Below are positions 9,269 to 38,660 of a stretch of 38,660 nucleotides of DNA, in pieces. The notes beneath the pieces are model-generated. The model was not told the origin of the DNA, did no database searches, and saw only the letters and a program-made list of their open reading frames with translations. Source of the stretch: a virus. The position numbers were made by a program, and so were the translations under genes. The stretch lies in UHGV virus genome UHGV-0366580, one strand, 5' to 3'. How positions within the stretch are numbered: position 1 is the stretch's first letter; each line of letters starts with the position of its first letter.

Positions 9269-9691
9269 ATGGCTGAAACACAGATGAGCATGTTTGGTGA
9301 CAGCGAACAGCTGCACGCGCTGATTGACCGTCTGGATGATATTCCTGATGATGAGCTGAAAAAGAACTGGCCCGGCACGCTGCGGGACCTGGTTGATGTG
9401 ATCAGTGCTGAACTGCACCGTCAGGGGATTGAACCTGCTCAGGCGGGAATGCTTGCCCGTAAGGTTGCAGCCGCACAGGCCGGGTACATGGGCGGGCGTG
9501 GTTATTATCTCCCGGTCGGTGAATCCCTTTTCACCGAACTGCGCAATAATGAAATTTTTTCCCGCTGGAGCCAGGGCGAAAAAATTGAAACCCTGCGCCG
9601 CCATTACCGGATGTCAGAAACCCAGATTTACACCGTCATACGCGAACAGCGCCGTCTGCATCTGGCAAGAACGCAACCGCCACTTTTCTGA
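9269..9691 (+). CDS. Mor/C-family transcription activator (middle or late regulator)
   Basis: 140 aa; C-terminal region resembles the Mor/C family as recalled from memory; directly precedes the lysis and structural genes. Confidence 0.7.
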   Translation: MAETQMSMFGDSEQLHALIDRLDDIPDDELKKNWPGTLRDLVDVISAELHRQGIEPAQAGMLARKVAAAQAGYMGGRGYYLPVGESLFTELRNNEIFSRWSQGEKIETLRRHYRMSETQIYTVIREQRRLHLARTQPPLF

Positions 9692-9762
9692 TATTCCGCA
9701 AAGCCTGCCGCCTTTCCTTCACCGTTACGCTGACTCAGAGAACATCATGAGACAGCGTAACA

Positions 9763-17483: not shown

Positions 17484-17659
17484 TTGTTTAAGGTATGCAA
17501 ATGCATTACCTTACCCCCTTCAGGCGCGTGTCGTGATTTTCTAACCTGTATTTAACGGGCTTTAAAATCTGCGTGAAGCGCCTTTGTATTTTTCCCCTGA
17601 AAGCACTTCCTGAAATCCCGCAAAACCCGCCCTGAAAATTCCCGGCTTATGCTGCCGGA
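17484..17659 (+). promoter_or_regulatory. G-I intergenic region: candidate late promoter and/or strong gyrase site
   Basis: 176-bp non-coding gap at the genome centre; three direct CCTGAAA repeats (17596, 17609, 17631) upstream of the I start. Confidence 0.4.
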
Positions 17660-25954: not shown

Positions 25955-27356
25955 CGGCAAGGGGTCGTTTCGCGGTGTGCCATTCCTGGTATTTCGCGAA
26001 CAGCGTGAACGCGGTGGGCGTAATATCGTTCGCCGGGAATATCCGTTACAGGAACGGGGCGGTGCAGATGATCTGGGGCCAAAACTGCCGGAATACACCT
26101 TCACCGTACTGGTGATGGGAGAGGATGTTCACACGCAACGAAGCCGTCTTCGGGATGCCCTTCGCGCCCCCGGGCCGGGTGAACTTATGCACCCGGAATA
26201 TGGCACTTTAAACGTGATGATAAACAGCTTTGAAAGCCGTTACAGCGCCGATGAACAGCGCATTGTTGAATTCACAATTAATGTGTCTCCGGTCAGTGAT
26301 GAAACAGCGCCAACGGCCAGCCAGGATACGGCTGCACTTCTGGAGGCCAGAAGTGGTGCAGCCCTGAACAGCATGTTTGGTACGCTGGCAAGTGGCTGGA
26401 CCGTCATTTCCGATGGTATGCATGATGTGCAGGCAATGGCTGAAACCATCAGTGACAAAATTGAGGCGCTGGAAAATTCCGTTTCCGGGATGGGGATTGT
26501 GCAGGATATCAGTGCCTTTACGGCCACGTTTACGGCGCTTAAAGGTAACGTTACCGCATTGCTCACAAGTCCGCAGCGAATGGCGGAATCACTGGCGGGT
26601 ATGTTTGTCACCCTGACGGCATTACCCACGATCCCTGCGCTCTCCCTTACCCGGAAGAATACCGGCAGTACCGTAACCGGTGCTTCCGGGGGGAATGGCG
26701 GTACGGTTTACACCAGAGGCAGTGGAGGCGAATTGCCCGCAGGGAGTCTGGATGTGGTGATGCAGAGCACCCTTGAACAGGGACTTCCTCAGCTCTACAG
26801 AACCTTATCCTCCCTGCGTTATGCGCTGACAGAACAGGATGATCCACAGCGTCTGATTGGGCTTACCCCGCCAGCTCAACAAAATATCCGGCTTCTCAGG
26901 GCAGTGATGCAGAGTGCAGCCGTGGTGTCTCAGGCTCAGACAGTGGGAAAATTGCTGGATCAGGTAATCAGTCTTGAAACAGCCCGGACAAGTAATAACA
27001 CGAAGTCAGCCGGTCTTGTCTGGCTGGAAAGTGCCGCAGATGTTGAGCGTATCAACCGTGATTTGAGTGATGCGCTTGAATTACAGGTCATGGATTTGTC
27101 TGCGCTGGGGTATACCTCCACAGCCCTGACTCTCAGGGATGCCCGCCTGGCGTTGACAGAAGATCTTACGGTCAGGGCGGTCTCCCTGCCGGGGGCTGTA
27201 CAGGTATCCGTCCGGGCGACAGAACCTGCACTGGTAACCCTGTACCGTGAAACAGGAAACAGCACCCGCTGGCAACATTTTGTGCGTCGTAACAACATTT
27301 CAGACCCGCTTTTTGTGCCGGGGGGAAGTACTGTGGAGGTGATCAGTGAACAGTAA
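25941..27356 (+). CDS. Mu N-like DNA circularization / tail protein
   Basis: ATG 25941 with GGAGG RBS, overlapping the tape-measure stop; ORF-track start 25839 is inside the tape-measure gene and rejected. Confidence 0.7.
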   Translation: MSTGDGKGSFRGVPFLVFREQRERGGRNIVRREYPLQERGGADDLGPKLPEYTFTVLVMGEDVHTQRSRLRDALRAPGPGELMHPEYGTLNVMINSFESRYSADEQRIVEFTINVSPVSDETAPTASQDTAALLEARSGAALNSMFGTLASGWTVISDGMHDVQAMAETISDKIEALENSVSGMGIVQDISAFTATFTALKGNVTALLTSPQRMAESLAGMFVTLTALPTIPALSLTRKNTGSTVTGASGGNGGTVYTRGSGGELPAGSLDVVMQSTLEQGLPQLYRTLSSLRYALTEQDDPQRLIGLTPPAQQNIRLLRAVMQSAAVVSQAQTVGKLLDQVISLETARTSNNTKSAGLVWLESAADVERINRDLSDALELQVMDLSALGYTSTALTLRDARLALTEDLTVRAVSLPGAVQVSVRATEPALVTLYRETGNSTRWQHFVRRNNISDPLFVPGGSTVEVISEQ

Positions 27357-31140: not shown

Positions 31141-32108
31141 TGTATTTCGTGGATAACAATACCGGTACGACAGAGATGCCAGCGCTGGCTCCATCGCAGG
31201 GTACTGAAGTTAAGTGGTTTACGGAAGGCGACGGTAATAAAGGTATCAGCCATATCGGGCAGGACTGGCTTAATATCATTCAGGCAGAATTGCTTGCGAT
31301 TTTGACTGAAGGAAAAATTCAACCAGATAAAATGAAGCTGAATCAGCTTACACTGGCAATCAAGGCCATTATTACGGCCAATGCTTTTTTACGTAAAAAC
31401 AACCTGAAAGAAATCGAGGATGCGGGAGCTGGTGCTCAGGCGAATGCCAGAAAAGCTCTTGGGCTGGGGACTCTGGCGACAAAAGATAAGCTTTCACCAA
31501 CAGATGTTGGTGCGCTTGAAAAAAGCAAAAATTTGTCTGACGTACCCGATAAAGTTGCGGCCCGTACCAACCTTGGGGTTTACAGTAAAGAAGAAGGTGA
31601 TCGGCGTTATCTGAAAAGCGGCGCAGATATTGGTTCATATAGTCGCGAACAAAGTGATGGGTCATATCTTAAGGTTGCGTCAAATGGTTCTGACATTGCA
31701 AACAGAAGTGCCTTTATCGATAACCTCGGTTTACGGGAAACGGTAAACAGGGCGGCGAATGCCCTGCCATCGAACGGAACGGCCGTTGCCGCGAACAGGC
31801 TGGCAAATGCCCACACAATTAATGGTGTTCCCTTTGACGGAACGCAGGATATCAACATTACCTCCGGTATGACCGAAGCTGCTGCTGATAACAAATACGT
31901 TCGCAACGTTCAGCTTGGTGCCCAGAGTTACCATTCACCCGGAGGTAATGAAATGTCCTGGAGTTATGGCGCGCCTTCCGGTTGTATGCTTTCAGGTATT
32001 AACGTGCAGGAGACCGGGAGAAATTCAGCCGATAATATCGGAGGCGTTTATTACCGTCCGGTGCAGATATATATCGGTAATGCCTGGCGCACAGTTTCAT
32101 CCGTCTGA
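31140..32108 (+). CDS. Tail fibre protein S; the 3' ~380 bp (variable part Sv) lies inside the invertible segment
   Basis: 322 aa; the gix-L site falls inside the coding sequence, so the C-terminus is exchangeable. Confidence 0.8.
   Translation: MYFVDNNTGTTEMPALAPSQGTEVKWFTEGDGNKGISHIGQDWLNIIQAELLAILTEGKIQPDKMKLNQLTLAIKAIITANAFLRKNNLKEIEDAGAGAQANARKALGLGTLATKDKLSPTDVGALEKSKNLSDVPDKVAARTNLGVYSKEEGDRRYLKSGADIGSYSREQSDGSYLKVASNGSDIANRSAFIDNLGLRETVNRAANALPSNGTAVAANRLANAHTINGVPFDGTQDINITSGMTEAAADNKYVRNVQLGAQSYHSPGGNEMSWSYGAPSGCMLSGINVQETGRNSADNIGGVYYRPVQIYIGNAWRTVSSV
31714..31739 (+). other. gix-L-like recombination site for Gin (half-sites TTATCGATAACC / GGTTTACGGGAA, core TC)
   Basis: Closely resembles the Mu gixL sequence as recalled from memory; inner 20 bp is a perfect inverted repeat of 33141-33160. 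Confidence 0.75.
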
Positions 32109-32116
32109 TTAAAGGA

Positions 32117-32139
32117 AAAGGGTGCGATAAGCACCCTTT
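32117..32139. terminator. Hairpin between convergent Sv and tail-fibre assembly genes (possible bidirectional terminator)
   Basis: 9-bp perfect stem AAAGGGTGC/GCACCCTTT with GATAA loop, just after the S stop. Confidence 0.4.
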
Positions 32140-32142
32140 ACG

Positions 32143-32685
32143 TTATTCAGGCTTCTCCGGCCATTTAATGTCGTCAAATTCAGCTTTGTTTTTAATCGCT
32201 GGTAGTTCCATTTTTTTCACCTGACTGATGTATGCCATCCATCGGGTAAGTGCGGCTCTGTCTTCATCACTGATGGTGCCCAGCTGTAATTCTGTTCTCC
32301 AGTCATTAATTTTTTCATATGCCTGATTAAGATATGACTGGCGCATTGCTTCCAGTTTTCTTGCGTAGTTAACCGGAATACGGGAGATCACGCCATTATC
32401 AAACTTCCAGTTACCCGAAATATCAGCACCTTCAGGGAGTTCGTCGACTTCAACCACAGAGAACCCCGCAGGATACAGCGCCGAAGCGTCCTGTGATATT
32501 GAGCAGATAATGCCGCTGTCAGGTGTTATACAAAGTTTATATTTTTTTGTGAATAATGGCAGGGACTCGTAGAAATCCTTACCATCTTCACTCTGAAAAT
32601 ACTGTACATCATTACCATAGAGGGTGTTTTCCGGGTAATATCGTTTAACATTAATCAGTTGCATAAACATCACCATGTGAATCAA
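32143..32685 (-). CDS. Tail fibre assembly protein (U'-like), currently antisense to the tail operon
   Basis: 180-aa minus-strand ORF inside the invertible segment, downstream of Sv' on that strand. Confidence 0.7.
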   Translation of the reverse strand: MIHMVMFMQLINVKRYYPENTLYGNDVQYFQSEDGKDFYESLPLFTKKYKLCITPDSGIICSISQDASALYPAGFSVVEVDELPEGADISGNWKFDNGVISRIPVNYARKLEAMRQSYLNQAYEKINDWRTELQLGTISDEDRAALTRWMAYISQVKKMELPAIKNKAEFDDIKWPEKPE

Positions 32686-32784
32686 TGATAAAAACAGGAA
32701 TAATACTATCGCTATATACGGACAGGGGTTGTCTGAGATAACGCATATATCAGGCGCTGCCTGCCGTACGCCATGAGCCGTTAA

Positions 32785-33160
32785 TTAAATACTTGCAGCG
32801 GATACCCAATTCCCATTAATACAATATTGTATCTGTCTGTAATAAACACGGTCATCACCACCACGCATTTCCCAGTCTCCGTCAGTCTTAAAACCGGTAA
32901 TCACATTTCCTGATGACAGGGAGTAATTATATTCCAGTACGCCGCTTAATGCCTGCGCTCCCAGTCTTACCCCTGTAACATAACGCTGATTGGCCGTTGA
33001 TTCCGGCATTCCTGACGTAATGTTTATATCCCGCGTCCCGTCGAAAGGAACACCATTAATATTTCTTGGGGTGGCGAGTCTGTTTGCTGCCACGGCGGTT
33101 CCCCCCGATGGCAGGGCATCAGCGGCCTTATTTACCGTTTCCCGTAAACCGAGGTTTCAG
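32785..33160 (-). CDS. Alternative tail-fibre C-terminal module Sv' (no start of its own; expressed only after inversion)
   Basis: Minus-strand frame open from the gix-R core; encodes ...NRLATPRNINGVPFDGTRDINITSGMPES..., a paralogue of the S C-terminus. Confidence 0.7.
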
Positions 33161-33218: not shown

Positions 33219-33779
33219 ATGCTGATTGGCTATATACGCGTATCAACAAATGACCAGAACACAGGTTTACAAAGAAATGCGCTGGAATGTGCAGGATGTG
33301 AGCAGATTTTTGAAGACAAAATGAGTGGTAAAACGACGCAGCGGCCGGGACTGAAGCGGGCACTGAAGAAACTAAAACCCGGCGACACACTGATGGTCTG
33401 GAAACTGGACAGGCTGGGGCGCAGTATGCGCCACCTTGTTGCGCTGACAGATGAATTACAGCAACAGGGGATAAATTTTCGTAGTCTTACTGACAACATT
33501 GATACGTCAACCCCCATGGGGCGCTTCTTTTTTCACATAATGGGTGCGCTGGCAGAAATGGAGCGTGAATTGATTGTCGAACGGACACGGGCTGGTCTTG
33601 CTGCTGCCCGTGAAAGGGGACGAACCGGCGGCAGACCCCGTCGTCTCACGCAGGAACAATACGAGCAGGTCGGGCGTTTACTGGCCGGGGGTGTCAGCCG
33701 AAGACAGGTGGCACTTATTTTTGATATCGGCCTTTCAACCCTTTATCGTTATTATCCTGCGAGCGTTTCGGAAAAATAA
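33219..33779 (+). CDS. gin: Gin DNA invertase (serine recombinase, Hin/Gin/Pin/Cin family)
   Basis: 186 aa; MLIGYIRVSTNDQ catalytic-serine motif and C-terminal HTH; closely resembles Mu Gin as recalled from memory. Confidence 0.92.
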   Translation: MLIGYIRVSTNDQNTGLQRNALECAGCEQIFEDKMSGKTTQRPGLKRALKKLKPGDTLMVWKLDRLGRSMRHLVALTDELQQQGINFRSLTDNIDTSTPMGRFFFHIMGALAEMERELIVERTRAGLAAARERGRTGGRPRRLTQEQYEQVGRLLAGGVSRRQVALIFDIGLSTLYRYYPASVSEK

Positions 33780-33878: not shown

Positions 33879-35918
33879 ATGACGTCCAAATGGGTTCAAC
33901 TATCATCAATGCCCGGAAACTTTACTGTTAAAGTTTCCGGTGGTACAGCGGCATTTCTTGAGGCTCCCTTTCCTCCGGCCGAAACAAAAGGAGGAATGAC
34001 ATTTGCTGACTGTCTCATCAGTTTTAATACACGGGATTGCCTGTGGGTAAGGCCAGTATCCGGTGATCCGAGCGTGGAAATTACCGGTGCGGGTATTGGT
34101 GCTGTCATTCCGTTAAGTGCTGATGTTGCCGGTACTGCTGAACCGTCAGACTGGGATAATGCTGAAACACATACCCGTCCGTCAGGAAATGAAACTGCTT
34201 CCAGCTCCCCTTCCTGGTATTACGTGGTGGTTCTTGCTGGTCAGTCAAACGGGATGGCCTACGGTGAAGGTCTGCCGCTGCCGGAGACATATGACCGCCC
34301 CGAACCGCGTATTATGCAGTTAGCCCGTCGCAGTACAGTCACGCCGGGAGGTAAAGCCTGTCAGTATAACGACATCATTCTGGCCGACCACTGTCTGCAT
34401 GATGTGCAGGATATGAGTGGAAAAAATCACCCGAAAGCGGATGTGGCTAAAGGGCAATATGGCACCGTGGGTCAGGGGCTTCACATTGCCAAAAAACTGC
34501 TGCCGTTTATTCCGGCAGATGCGGGGATTCTGCTGGTTCCCTGCTGCCGTGGTGGTTCTGCATTCACGGCGGGTGCTGACGGCACGTACAGTGACAGCAC
34601 GGGTGCTTCAGAGGACTCAGCCCGCTGGGGTGTGGATAAGCCGCTGTATAAGGACTTAATCAGCCGGACAAAAGCGGCACTGGCGAAGAACCCGAAAAAC
34701 CGCCTGCTTGCTGTGGTGTGGATGCAGGGCGAGTTTGATATTGATGCGAAGCCGACGGAGCATTCCGCGCTGTTTCTGGCGATGGTGGAAAAATTCCGCG
34801 CAGACCTGGCTGAACAGGCGGAACAGTGTACCGGTGGCAGTGCTGCTGGCGTTCCGTGGATTTGTGGCGATACCACGTATTTCTGGAAACAGAAAAACGA
34901 ACAGGCATACCAGGCAATCTATGACGGCTACAAAAATAAAACAGATAAAAACATTCATTTCGTCCCATTAATGACAGATGAAAATGGCGCGAATGTACCC
35001 ACCAACAATCCGACAGAAGACCCGGATATTGAATCCATTGGTTATTACGGCTCAACGTGGCGTAACAGTGCCGCCACCTGGACATCTGCGGGCCGGGCCA
35101 GCCATTTCAGTTCATGGGCACGTCGTGGGATTATTTCCGACCGTCTGGCCACGGCTGTTCTGACTCATGCAGGGCGAACCACAGTAAAAGCCGATGTTCC
35201 ATCTTCTGAAACTGAAGCACCAGTGCCGTCACCTTCAGAAACTGAAGCAGTAACCACAACACTGCTGTCTTACCGTGTCAGTGAGTCAGAAGGAAATCTG
35301 AAAGCCCAGGGCTGGGAGCCGGCTGGCGGTAAAGCTGAAATTATCAGTGATGCAGGAGGCACAGGTGGTAAGGCAATGAAACTGACCAAGGAAACAGGTA
35401 AATCATCCTGGTATCTGGATCATGATGCCGGTACTGGTGCTGAACTGCTGAAAAATGGTGGTTTAATCAGTTGTCGTTTTAAAGTACCTGGCGACCTGGT
35501 GGCAAACCAGTATGTCATGGCGCTTTACTGGCCGGTTTCCTCTCTGCCGCAGGGTGTCACCCTGACAGGGGATGCAGGGAATAATCTGCTGGCATCGTTC
35601 TACATCCAGACAGACGCAAAAGACCTGAATGTGATGCACCACAATGCAAAAGTGGCAACAAATAACCAGAAACTGGGAACCTTTGGTGTATTTGATAATG
35701 AATGGCATACGCTGGCCTTCCGTTTTGCAGGAAATAACAGCCTTCAGGTTATTCCGGTTATTGATGGTCAGGATGGTGCCGCGTTTACCCTGACGCAGTC
35801 ACCAGTAGGAACTTTCCCGGTGGACAAACTCCGCGTAACGGATATCACCAAAAATGCAACTTACCCGGTGCTGATTGACAGCATTGTGGTGGAAGTGAAA
35901 AAAGCGGTAACAGAATAA
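33879..35918 (+). CDS. Putative sialate O-acetylesterase-like protein (SGNH/SASA esterase with lectin-like C-terminal domain; NanS-p-like)
   Basis: 679 aa; GQSN motif (VVVLAGQSNGMAYGEG); Ser/Thr/Glu/Pro linker; beta-rich C-terminal ~200 aa. Lies between gin and com. Confidence 0.6.
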   Translation: MTSKWVQLSSMPGNFTVKVSGGTAAFLEAPFPPAETKGGMTFADCLISFNTRDCLWVRPVSGDPSVEITGAGIGAVIPLSADVAGTAEPSDWDNAETHTRPSGNETASSSPSWYYVVVLAGQSNGMAYGEGLPLPETYDRPEPRIMQLARRSTVTPGGKACQYNDIILADHCLHDVQDMSGKNHPKADVAKGQYGTVGQGLHIAKKLLPFIPADAGILLVPCCRGGSAFTAGADGTYSDSTGASEDSARWGVDKPLYKDLISRTKAALAKNPKNRLLAVVWMQGEFDIDAKPTEHSALFLAMVEKFRADLAEQAEQCTGGSAAGVPWICGDTTYFWKQKNEQAYQAIYDGYKNKTDKNIHFVPLMTDENGANVPTNNPTEDPDIESIGYYGSTWRNSAATWTSAGRASHFSSWARRGIISDRLATAVLTHAGRTTVKADVPSSETEAPVPSPSETEAVTTTLLSYRVSESEGNLKAQGWEPAGGKAEIISDAGGTGGKAMKLTKETGKSSWYLDHDAGTGAELLKNGGLISCRFKVPGDLVANQYVMALYWPVSSLPQGVTLTGDAGNNLLASFYIQTDAKDLNVMHHNAKVATNNQKLGTFGVFDNEWHTLAFRFAGNNSLQVIPVIDGQDGAAFTLTQSPVGTFPVDKLRVTDITKNATYPVLIDSIVVEVKKAVTE

Positions 35919-35953
35919 AAAAAATCCCGCCGGTCATGATATGGCTGGCGGGA
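35916..35953. terminator. Hairpin with upstream A8 tract (on the minus strand: hairpin followed by T8)
   Basis: TCCCGCCGG...CTGGCGGGA 9-bp stem immediately after the esterase stop. Confidence 0.45.
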
Positions 35954-36067
35954 GCTACCTAACCCATAAAGGAAAATAAAAATACTCCCGAAGGAGTAGT
36001 TACCAGTCACTTCGTCATGTTTTTACCCGATAACGAATTATGTAGTCAATATCAAAGGTAAGGTTAT

Positions 36068-36250
36068 ATGACATTCGTTCATACAATGCTGCTTTATTTC
36101 TGCGCTGTGGTCAGTGCGTTATATCTGGTGAGCGGCGGTTATAAGGTCATCAGAAATTATATTCGCCGCAAAATTGATGACGCAGCAGCCGAAAAGCTCA
36201 GTAAAACAGCACAGGCACCATCATCCCCAAACGACCCGACCCCGCTCTGA
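36068..36250 (+). CDS. Small membrane protein (one TM segment)
   Basis: 60 aa; hydrophobic LLYFCAVVSALYLVSGGY; AAGGTAAGG RBS. Confidence 0.45.
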   Translation: MTFVHTMLLYFCAVVSALYLVSGGYKVIRNYIRRKIDDAAAEKLSKTAQAPSSPNDPTPL

Positions 36251-36285
36251 TAACGGGGCAATATACCTGCAAAAGGAGAATATTC

Positions 36286-36531
36286 ATGCCAGAGATTAAA
36301 GGCACGGTTACTGAAGAGCTTGTCAAACAGGCACTTTATTCTGAAGAAGTGAACCGCGTGCTGAAGGCGCAGGTTCGCAAGGATTTTGAGGCACAAATCG
36401 ACGCATATGTTGATGAAGTGCTGGCCCGAATGGTTGGCCGTTCTCCGGCTGAAAACAGCACGGAAAATGCTCCTCAACCCGTAGAGCAACCAGAGCCGGT
36501 TCAGCCCGGAACTGACGGTACTATGATGTAA
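36286..36531 (+). CDS. Hypothetical small protein
   Basis: 81 aa; strong RBS AAAGGAGA 7 nt upstream; followed by a terminator hairpin. Confidence 0.5.
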   Translation: MPEIKGTVTEELVKQALYSEEVNRVLKAQVRKDFEAQIDAYVDEVLARMVGRSPAENSTENAPQPVEQPEPVQPGTDGTMM

Positions 36532-36540
36532 CAATACCGA

Positions 36541-36572
36541 CCGGCAGGTTTCCCTGCCGGGTGAATTTGTTA
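36541..36572 (+). terminator. Candidate intrinsic terminator (CCGGCAGG/CCTGCCGG stem, TTTC loop)
   Basis: 8-bp perfect stem followed by GTGAATTTGTT. Confidence 0.5.
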
Positions 36573-36599
36573 ATGCACGTTTTGTGTATTTTCCCTCTG

Positions 36600-37149
36600 G
36601 GGAGAACAGGCAGGGCATATCAGCATCCTGAAACAGGAAGCATTTTTTGGTTTGTATGTCTTGCCATTTTGAGATCGAGAACGGCGATAGATGAGCTGTA
36701 AGGGAGTCTTACAGGCAGGGTAAACAGGCTCTTTATCCATGATAAAGATCTCCTTTTTATGCATCTCTGCTTTACAGGAGACCGGGGAATATCATAGGAT
36801 ACGCCACGAGCTCGAAGTAAAGCATTGATGCAAAATTGTCTAAATCGGCCCAGAATAGTTCGCGCTATCTGGGTCGCCCTTTATGTATGTAGTATCCCAT
36901 TGATTTGAAACATACTACATATACGCACAATCCTACCTTCACTGTATAAAAAGTCAATAAAATGATCATTTTATGATCGTTTTCACCACCTAACTCTTCG
37001 TTTTCTTTAAGTAAGTAATCACCGCCCTGAATCATTGTTGATGACTTTTCAATCTATTTGTTGTATCAATTAAACAAACCGAATCGATCGTTTTTGTCGA
37101 TCGATTGCATGAGAAAGGCATCAACAACAAAGCAGGAGGTTATGCGGCC
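36600..37149 (+). promoter_or_regulatory. AT-rich non-coding region upstream of com with GATC clusters and inverted repeats (candidate mom-type late promoter)
   Basis: GATC at ~36673, 36748, 36964, 36976, 37086, 37098; AATCGATCG-N7-CGATCGATT inverted repeat at 37082-37106. Confidence 0.45.
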
Positions 37150-37335
37150 ATGTATCGAAACATACGGTGCCGACACTGCAATAAGCTACTGGCACGGGCC
37201 AGTTTCAGTTATCTGGAAGTAAAATGTCCGCGCTGCAAAACCCTCAATCAAATCACATCTCAGAGCGCCACAGAGCACCCCACATACACAAGGAAATCCT
37301 GCCGTGGGGAACAAGAAACATTACTTTCAGTCTGA
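37150..37335 (+). CDS. com: Com-like zinc-finger translational activator
   Basis: ATG 37150 with AGGAGG RBS (TTG at 37105 is the upstream alternative); RCRHCNKLL...KCPRCK motif; 3' end overlaps the next gene by 32 nt. Confidence 0.75.
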   Translation: MYRNIRCRHCNKLLARASFSYLEVKCPRCKTLNQITSQSATEHPTYTRKSCRGEQETLLSV

Positions 37336-38356
37336 TAAGTCACTAACCTATGGTTCAGTATGCAGTGGTATTGAAGCTGCGACAGTAGCCTGGAGCAATC
37401 TTGGCTGGAAAGCCAGATGGTTCAGTGAAATAGAGGACTTCCCGTCAACACTTCTTTCATATCGCTGGCCCCATATACCAAATCTTGGTGATATGGCTTT
37501 GCTTGCGCCTCGTATCAGGGATGGGCTTATTGAAGCACCAGATATTCTTGTAGGTGGAACTCCGTGTCAGGCATTCAGTATGTCAGGCAAACGAAAAGGC
37601 CTTTCAGATCCACGGGGGCAGTTAACACTGTCTTTTGTTGAACTGGCGAATCAGATAGATACCGTTCGGGCATCGCTCAATAAATCCCCCTCAATAATCG
37701 TATGGGAAAACGTCACAGGAGTTTTAAGTAGCCATGACAATGCATTCGGTCATTTTCTTGGTGCGCTGGCCGGAGCAGGTTGCGCATTACAGCCAGCAAG
37801 GAAAAGATGGGCAAACGCTGGTGTTGTGTCTGGACCATCGCGTATCGTCGCCTGGCGAGTACTTGATGCCCAATATTTCGGAGTCGCCCAGGCTCGCAGA
37901 AGAGTGTTTGTTGTGGCAAGTGCTGGAAAAAGGCTCGATCCCGGAAAGGTATTATTTGAGTTCCCGCCTGTGTCGCAGGGCGATAAAAACTATTACGGAA
38001 AGAAGAAAAAATCCGAATCCCTTCTTGATCAAGGCATTGAAGGAAAATTGCACCGATATTGCCTTGAAGCATTGCCAAAACGAACAGGCACAGTAATAGC
38101 TGGCTATAACGGAACAACTAACCAGGACATGACTATGTCTGGTGGGCTCATAGTTGAAAGAGCGCCATATTCAAGGGTTCGTAGGTTGACGCCAACCGAA
38201 TGCGAGAGGCTACAAGGTTTTCCCGATGGATATACAGATATTCCATGGAAAAATTCATCTCCAGCTCATCGTTATAAGGCCATTGGAAATTCAATGCCTG
38301 TACCGGTCATGAAATGGATTGGTCGAAGAATACAGGAAGCGTTAAACGAAGTTTAA
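37304..38356 (+). CDS. C5-cytosine DNA methyltransferase (Dcm-like), in the position Mu uses for mom
   Basis: 350 aa; motifs GGTPCQAFSMSG (PCQ), ENV (IVWENVTG), QARRR, ERLQGFPDGYT, AIGNSMPVPV; GTG start inside the com 3' end. Confidence 0.85.
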   Translation: MGNKKHYFQSDKSLTYGSVCSGIEAATVAWSNLGWKARWFSEIEDFPSTLLSYRWPHIPNLGDMALLAPRIRDGLIEAPDILVGGTPCQAFSMSGKRKGLSDPRGQLTLSFVELANQIDTVRASLNKSPSIIVWENVTGVLSSHDNAFGHFLGALAGAGCALQPARKRWANAGVVSGPSRIVAWRVLDAQYFGVAQARRRVFVVASAGKRLDPGKVLFEFPPVSQGDKNYYGKKKKSESLLDQGIEGKLHRYCLEALPKRTGTVIAGYNGTTNQDMTMSGGLIVERAPYSRVRRLTPTECERLQGFPDGYTDIPWKNSSPAHRYKAIGNSMPVPVMKWIGRRIQEALNEV

Positions 38357-38590
38357 ACCTAAGCAAAAGACATTATGAAGTTGGTTTTTGTGCCGTTAAA
38401 AGATGTCTTTAAGGAGTGCAAAGGAAAGCGCCAATTTAGTATCAAAAAAGATGCTTATCGGCGCTTTTCATCGGTATCAAATGAAATGCAAATCGGTATC
38501 AAAAAAATCGCCGCGCTATACGGTGTACACATTACTTGAACGGTCTGCCCGCCAGTGGGCGCAGGCATTGAACGCAGAGCAGGTATAAGA

Positions 38591-38660
38591 ATGACAGAAA
38601 AAGTAAAACAACATGCCGCTCCGGTAACGGGCAGTGATGAAATCGATATTGGTCGCCTGG
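38591..38660 (+). CDS. 5' end of a probable flanking gene, truncated by the window
   Basis: ATG at 38591 opens MTEKVKQHAAPVTGSDEIDIGRL, running off the window end; identity unknown. Confidence 0.25.
   Translation, partial: MTEKVKQHAAPVTGSDEIDIGRL

Follow-up and report, generated by a model that had tools for sequence, protein, structure and literature searches.

A candidate OxyR- and Dam-responsive operator before the com-cytosine methylase module of a Mu-like Escherichia coli prophage

Results

The locus and its genes

The window, by which we mean the whole stretch of 38,660 nt that was analysed, is a Mu-like E. coli prophage, for which genome comparison finds identical or near-identical counterparts in several E. 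coli chromosomes. It opens within the element, carries a homologue of transposase A at 418-2508, is blockwise collinear with Mu, and reaches the right end of the prophage at about 38520, where the 'inserted Mu-like phage' annotation of LC727895 also stops. The features of interest are given in Table 1. The region that adjoins gin (31711-33157) resembles an invertible G segment, and its Mu-like inverted gix-type ends match Mu 34998-35040 in both orientations. Mu has nothing between gin and com, whereas the lineage of the window has three accessory genes there, the first of which encodes a protein of 679 aa with a sialate O-acetylesterase-type (SASA) domain and DUF6645. Behind the last of these genes (DUF826), still between gin and com, a strong bidirectional terminator hairpin lies at 36541-36560. 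The intergenic gap 5' of com spans 618 bp and is A/T-rich (41% of G+C, against 53% in the whole window).

Table 1. Coordinates of genes and regulatory features at the right end of the prophage (positions in the window)
Feature	Position	Strand	Remarks
gin	33219-33779		
Three accessory genes after gin	33879-35918 (DUF6645/SASA), then DUF1378 and DUF826	+	Domains from Pfam
Distal OxyR-type half-site ATTTGTTGTATCAAT	37056-37070		7/10 against ATAGnTnnnAnCTAT, without GATC; 16 nt upstream of the proximal half-site
A/T-rich gap between the half-sites	37071-37086		16 nt; varies among alleles
Inverted repeat AATCGATCG-N7-CGATCGATT, perfect	37082-37106		Arms 37082-37090 and 37098-37106; from the inverted-repeat scan
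GATC pair within the inverted repeat	37086-37089 and 37099-37102		13 bp apart; from the list of GATC sites
Proximal OxyR-type half-site ATCGTTTTTGTCGAT	37087-37101		7/10 against ATAGnTnnnAnCTAT; both GATC adenines inside
Inferred com promoter	37097-37124	+	-35 TCGATC (37097-37102), 16-bp spacer, -10 CATCAA (37119-37124)
Shine-Dalgarno sequence of com, AGGAGG	37134-37139	+	Kept in all com families
com	37150-37335	+	61-aa zinc-ribbon protein; Pfam Zn_ribbon_Com, E = 5.8e-13
C5 cytosine DNA methylase gene	37304-38356	+	Pfam DNA_methylase, E = 1.6e-42; TIGR00675

The Com protein of the window is 52% identical to that of Mu, which is a translational activator of the downstream modification gene and acts on the start region that overlaps com. 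Here, the gene behind com starts with a GTG (37304) and shares its first 32 nt with the end of com. Its product is a C5 cytosine methylase whose best solved relatives are M.HhaI and M.HaeIII, so the original prediction of a modification enzyme different from Mom was correct. The Mu-type arrangement, in which com overlaps the start of a modification gene at the right end of the phage, is thus present.

Comparison with other genomes indicates how this module arose. Around 200 of the 5426 complete E. coli genomes, O157:H7 strains included, have the window's segment 36540-37318 at approximately 95% identity, followed by a true mom. The mom genes of these relatives start at the GTG equivalent to 37304, share their first codons with the methylase gene (M-G-N-K/R-K), and similarity between the two versions stops near 37318. 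The version with the C5 methylase was found in 10 of the 5426 genomes and in two records of Stx phages carrying an inserted Mu-like phage. As read from these alignments, mom was exchanged for the methylase as a precise cassette, just behind the Com-controlled start. Since the start codon is equivalent and similarity runs to about 37318, the C5 methylase inherited the start region overlapping com, and its translation is presumably still dependent on Com. By the same comparison, the control region was not made for the C5 methylase, but is the standard com-mom control region of the lineage. We rejected autoregulation by the methylase at the repeat: the protein has no N-terminal DNA-binding extension (motif I begins at residue 18), and an identical repeat precedes mom in the relatives. 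A link between M.EcoGII and com was dropped because the text of the M.EcoGII paper did not bear it out.

GATC sites and the inverted repeat

Four GATC sites lie near com, at 36964, 36975, 37086 and 37099, and span 139 bp, in agreement with the original prediction of four sites within about 140 bp. The predicted N7-spaced inverted repeat is also there and includes the last two sites. It was thought to end right at com, which would only be the case if the gene started at TTG 37105; the real start is the one preceded by AGGAGG, and the repeat stops 44 bp upstream of its ATG (37150).

Neither the density of sites nor the repeat is informative when taken in isolation. The span of 139 bp is the tightest in the window for four sites, but an equally tight one occurred in 54% of the trials when 117 sites were placed at random in 38.7 kb, so density by itself is no evidence. 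Across the window GATC is rarer than expected (117 observed, against 148 +/- 10.5), and the 618-bp intergenic stretch has six sites against 1.9 expected (Poisson P = 0.012, for a region chosen after the fact). The repeat by itself is unexceptional, because perfect inverted repeats with 9-bp arms and loops of 0-20 nt give 16 matches in the window, against 4.0 +/- 2.8 in shuffled sequences (these matches represent about 10 distinct repeats, overlapping registers being counted separately). The pair inside the repeat is nevertheless the sole GATC pair of the window spaced by exactly 13 bp. As judged from the alleles and loci compared below, the feature exceeds chance by its conservation and recurrence, not by its composition.

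A two-part match to the OxyR consensus

The half-site consensus of OxyR is ATAGnTnnnAnCTAT (PMC2909390). We scanned the whole window for pairs of such half-sites separated by a gap of 15-17 nt, with 10 specified positions per half and a maximal score of 20. There was a single top match, at 37056/37087, with a score of 14/20 and a gap of 16 nt; no other pair in the window had 7 or more in each half. Its two matches to ATAGnTnnnAnCTAT (7/10 and 7/10) fall within the spacing of about 31-32 bp that defines a two-part site, their centres being 31 bp apart, as in Mu. The proximal half-site (37087-37101) has the form ATCG-N7-CGAT and takes in the two GATC sites of 37086 and 37099. As a positive control, the scan of the Mu genome placed the known OxyR region of Pmom joint top, with equal score and gap. 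Matches of 14/20 are expected 1.25 times per shuffled window, and the score therefore carries weight only through the location and the recurrence of the match. The arms of the repeat reach 5 bp past the OxyR 15-mer on either side, an extension that the consensus leaves unexplained.

Conservation within the lineage and recurrence in other phages

Both 15-mers are invariant in the 12 distinct alleles of the prophage lineage. The inverted repeat is also constant across them, except for one G>T change at 37103 that leaves the GATC intact. The sequences around these blocks are much less stable. The gap varies at five positions, with changes at 37075, 37077, 37079 and 37081 and with the base at 37072 deleted in one allele. 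Of the 15 positions in 37107-37121, 11 differ between alleles, and one allele has a 6-bp insertion downstream. In the recombinant type of allele, the block from about 37055 onward is kept while everything upstream is replaced; the AF39-type alleles (L007 and L040) have unrelated DNA upstream of about 37054 and preserve TATTTGTTGTATCAATTAAA...AATCGATCGTTTTTGTCGATCGATT exactly despite the replaced flank. From the alignment of alleles, this variation pattern is the one expected of two protein-contacted blocks with a spacer between them.

The element recurs before com in other phages. We took com loci from genomes and from IMG/VR, and scanned them in the same way. The top match of each locus was at the same place before com, always with a gap of 16 nt, in the Citrobacter-type Mu-like phages (family B, 16/20), the P2-like phages (family C, 15/20), the true Mu type with a ccATAACC C box (L103, 13/20) and a further family, E (13/20); the score of the window's own lineage (family A) is 14/20. 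In three families the element stands at a fixed distance of 56-57 nt from the ATG of com. The arrangement GATC-N14-GATC-N9-GATC (spacing of 18 and 13) is common to Mu, family C and L103, and the intervening bases differ. No such GATC cluster was found at non-enterobacterial com loci (Haemophilus, Marinomonas, Acinetobacter and others). Some P2-like com loci (L088, L091 and L011) have no GATC sites altogether, from which it follows that the element is dispensable in some phages.

The triple is not restricted to com. When IMG/VR was scanned with the pattern CGATCG-N7-CGATCGAT, the matches listed included GATC-N14-GATC-N9-GATC triples before other phage genes (L168, L175, L181/L184/L220/L246, L185, L194/L247/L261, L215, L217, L252 and L258). 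The genes behind the triple, among these matches, encode a UmuD-like S24 peptidase, a DUF4942 protein, a 270-aa membrane protein and a DUF826 protein. The distal 15-mer, which lies outside the search pattern, is exactly 16 nt upstream in each listed locus, with total scores of 12-17/20 (at least 14 in 9 of 10), two of the 10 positions of each distal half-site being fixed by the choice of the loci. These matches give the OxyR/Dam-type module the look of a portable cassette with a wide distribution in the DNA of enterobacterial phages. In one family (L181, L184, L220 and L246), a -10-like CATAAT/TAATAA stands behind the module, and a terminator-like hairpin (aaaaaacccgc...gcgggttt) comes about 60 nt further on. 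Behind this module we found no convincing ORF, and the family could encode a small RNA under Dam/OxyR-type control.

The distal GATC pair

The pair at 36964 and 36975 is spaced by 11 bp, not 13, and is located 122 bp upstream of the proximal one. It belongs to the segment that is replaced in the AF39-type alleles, and is therefore part of an exchangeable accessory segment. We found no OxyR-like site at this pair: two-part matches that touch it score 11/20 at most, and several hundred combinations of position and gap in the window score as high. By these comparisons, the distal pair is a separate feature and not part of the com operator.

This segment has some structure of its own. A perfect 18-bp palindrome, ATAAAATGATCATTTTAT (36957-36974), is centred on the GATC at 36964 and abuts a minus-strand sigma-70-like promoter, TTGACT-16-TAGGAT (36930-36957). 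A leftward transcript of the accessory segment may have its operator in this palindrome, with no connection to com. Just leftward (downstream) of that promoter, at 36886-36921, is another perfect inverted repeat, TATGTAGTAT-N16-ATACTACATA. A minus-strand ORF of 154 aa covers the distal pair in some relatives (for example WP_115801860 in FRIK2455; 36570-37035 of the window), and is here split into ORFs of 56 and 64 aa. It has no match in Pfam, and its only homologues are near-identical copies in E. coli, with frameshifts that make their C-terminal halves differ. We consider it doubtful as a gene, and by this comparison it is probably not a conserved one.

Promoter layout and the late-activator box

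We scored promoters with a rough sigma-70 matrix, which was made with textbook consensus frequencies and recovers the mapped promoter of P22 gtr (TCGATC/17/TACACT, with its -35 over GATC4). The -35 of the inferred com promoter overlaps the second GATC of the repeat. The -10 is weak in the window, and sister alleles read TATCAA or TATCAT. A like layout is predicted in family C (TCGATA/16/TATCAT) and in the allele L044 of the window's own family (TCGATC/16/TATCAT). The predicted start at about 37131 places the GATC sites at approximately -45 and -32. An alternative promoter further upstream (ATGACT-17-TATCAA, 37041-37069) has a lower score; with it, transcription would start near 37076 and the leader would contain the repeat, as it does in agn43. 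The OxyR site probably overlaps the -35 of com, as in gtr, and its occupancy should repress com under either layout.

The original prediction also included a site for the C activator, as in Mu, and this part of the layout was not found. From the last GATC to the ATG of com there are 51 nt in the window and 51-52 nt in families B and C, against 78 nt in Mu; from the centre of the proximal half-site the distances are 56-57 and 83-84 nt, the element being 27 bp closer to com in the window. Between the repeat and the conserved ribosome-binding site of com there is no space for both an activator site and a -10. A Mu-type C box (ATAACC or TTAT-N6-ATAA) is absent near com. The phage has a late-promoter architecture of its own, which we derived from Plys and PI: TTyCTGAwATyCCGCAAA-N23-TAyGCT. 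The box is perfect at Plys (9685-9731) and PI (17607-17653), is conserved across 16 Plys alleles, and lies at 41 nt from the -10, as in Mu. It is probably the binding site of the phage's C-type activator, which has 140 aa and is 40% identical to Mu C. A weaker third candidate occurs at 25983. Before com, the best match to this box is 11/18, with no -10 in register. TATGCG (37141) would be a -10 at the distance seen in Mu, but we rejected it, as transcripts starting from it would begin past the conserved ribosome-binding site and the ATG.

Discussion

Our results suggest that the segment 37056-37101 is a two-part OxyR binding site, of which the inverted repeat forms the promoter-proximal half with two Dam targets. 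We regard this as the probable reading, given the alignment with three experimentally defined OxyR/Dam sites and the conservation of the two blocks. The operator is most likely homologous to that of Mu, with an arrangement nearer to those of gtr or agn43. Both Dam and OxyR are present in E. coli. When the two GATC sites are unmethylated, an OxyR tetramer would occupy the two 15-mers, and hemimethylated DNA might perhaps be bound as well. Bound OxyR would block the com promoter, whose -35 is probably inside the site. Once Dam has methylated both adenines, OxyR would no longer bind and the promoter would be free to produce a transcript carrying com and the C5 methylase gene, the latter read from the retained mom-type GTG. 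As the operator is predicted to lie over the promoter, with no activator box, we expect repression by direct occlusion, as in gtr and agn43, and not the upstream mode of Mu.

The repeat might instead be the operator of a dimeric regulator of the phage (the C/Mor-type activator encoded at 9269-9691, or another one), the GATC sites being incidental or modulating. This fits the perfect 9-bp arms that extend past the OxyR 15-mer and are nearly constant in the 12 alleles, the Mu C site that begins at a GATT immediately behind GATC3, and a start at about 37131, which would centre the repeat near -37 when Mu C binds at about -44. Yet, the element recurs with unrelated late activators (the Mu-type C, the C of this phage, and those of P2-like phages) and also precedes genes outside the lytic programme of phages (agn43 and gtr), which points to a host factor. 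Moreover, the phage's late box, perfect at Plys and PI, is poor before com and lacks a -10 at the required distance, and the conserved distal 15-mer has no symmetry to the repeat. We thus find a phage regulator unlikely.

Still less likely, in our view, is an element that has no present regulatory role in this prophage, whether inherited as a relic or arisen by chance. Density, repeat and OxyR score are each insignificant in isolation, the GATC sites were lost at some com loci, and the -10 of the window's allele is weak. A relic or a chance feature would hardly have 15-mers that are strictly invariant beside hypervariable flanks, as seen in the 12 alleles, nor a block that survives a recombination break and keeps a fixed distance to com in three families.

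The original prediction, in which all four GATC sites and a C-activator site make up a Mu-style mom switch, now seems very improbable as a whole. The four sites do form the tightest such cluster of the window, and Mu has three plus C. The proximal pair indeed corresponds to GATC2 and GATC3 of Mu and has its upstream half-site at a 16-nt gap. The distal pair departs from the model in its distance, its 11-bp spacing, its low OxyR score and its location in a segment absent from the AF39-type alleles, and neither a C box nor room for one with a -10 exists before the ribosome-binding site of com. Equally improbable is a nucleic-acid hairpin, either a terminator of leftward (antisense) transcription or a stem-loop of the com leader: the minus strand matches a terminator-like pattern (9-bp stem, 7-nt loop, tail CGGTTTGTTT), has a folding energy of about -11 to -12 kcal/mol and is T-rich on that side in several families, but the folding z-scores are only -1.1 and -1.4, no minus-strand gene ends there, the plus strand lacks a T-run, family B and L103 have a stem reduced to 6 bp with the GATC sites in unchanged positions, the distal 15-mer at its fixed 16-nt gap is left unexplained, and an Rfam scan of 35900-38660 at E <= 1 gave no RNA family. 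An intrinsic terminator was rejected for the same reasons, the minus strand (z = -1.4) passing only a loose pattern scan and having no transcription unit to end.

If the segment is an OxyR/Dam-type operator, the Dam/OxyR control known from Mu mom would extend to a common family of Mu-like prophages of E. coli and to P2-like com-methylase modules. The com control region behaves like a fixed regulatory socket, into which Mom, an adenine methylase or a C5 methylase is plugged after the Com-dependent start codon. A point against the operator is that it does not account for a late switch-on of the operon, since our search before com gave no binding site of the phage's C-type late activator. Given that the site is predicted to overlap the core promoter, like those of agn43 and gtr, and that a late-activator box is lacking, the com operon could be a heritable, phase-variable ON/OFF switch in lysogens and not a purely late-lytic unit. 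This is a speculative extension to which we give little credence; if true, a subpopulation of lysogens would methylate host cytosines in the 10 genomes with the C5 methylase, whose prophage-borne enzyme would then be under Dam/OxyR epigenetic control, with one methylation system gating another. Our literature search for under-methylated GATC sites at this prophage found no report of them.

Comparison with known systems

In Mu, the mom promoter region I has three GATC sites that are bound by OxyR when unmethylated, according to the account of Bolker & Kahmann 1989 given in PMC4461284, and mom is controlled through these three sites plus C (PMC4461284). The Mu Pmom reads GATC-N14-GATC-N9-GATC, with the C site GATTATGCCCCAATAACC directly after. 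In the alignment, the pair of the window coincides with GATC2/GATC3 by its 13-bp spacing (GATC-N9-GATC) and its right flank GATCGATT. Both phages have a two-part OxyR-consensus site with a 16-nt gap and a score of 14/20, and in both the right end of a Mu-like genome is occupied by com and a DNA-modification gene that overlap each other. The two also differ. The window's operator has only two GATC sites, its distal half has none, and the position of GATC1 reads CAAT. In Mu, the -10 is about 45 bp downstream of the last GATC with the C site in between, whereas the window has no C box (TTAT-N6-ATAA or the phage's own) between the element and the -10. The site of the window is probably over the core promoter, whereas that of Mu is upstream of the activator site. 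Finally, the payload is a C5 methylase instead of Mom.

The proximal 15-mers corresponding to that of the window are ATCGGTAATACAGAT in Mu, ATCGTTTATATCGAT in agn43 and ATCGCTTGTATCGAT in P22 gtr. Dam methylation abolishes the binding of OxyR at agn43 and at P22 gtr (PMC2909390). The resemblance to agn43 (flu, in the K-12 prophage CP4-44), where OxyR is a repressor kept off by GATC methylation (PMC2909390), is close in the proximal half and its flanks, which are near-identical (AATCGATCGTTTTTGTCGATCGATT in the window and TATCGATCGTTTATATCGATCGATA in agn43; over a second span, CGATCGTTTTTGTCGATCGAT and CGATCGTTTATATCGATCGAT, respectively). The distal half-site of agn43 is 16-17 nt upstream of the proximal one, against 16 nt in the window. 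On the other hand, agn43 has three GATC sites (spacing of 19 and 13), its site is at and just past the transcript start, taken as the annotated 5' end of isrC at GATC-I, and it controls an adhesin with known phase variation.

In P22 gtr, each 13-bp GATC pair is within one half-site (PMC2909390). The OxyR(BC) site of gtr resembles the window in having such a pair in an ATCG-N7-CGAT half-site and a -35 (TCGATC) over the last GATC; its GATC sites are at -46 and -33 (PMC2909390), close to the positions predicted here. The second GATC pair of gtr, in a third half-site, provides it with alternative activating and repressing positions, whereas that of the window is not in a half-site, has the 11-bp spacing, and is 122 bp away instead of 64.

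The P2-like com-methyltransferase modules of E. coli and Salmonella prophages, for example phage Chuche, also have com followed by an overlapping methylase gene. They differ from the window in their three GATC sites (spacing of 18 and 13), in an annotated 'DNA methyltransferase' of a different kind and in their P2-like genomes. Like the window, they have an OxyR-type element 56 nt before the ATG of com, with the last GATC 51 nt from it.
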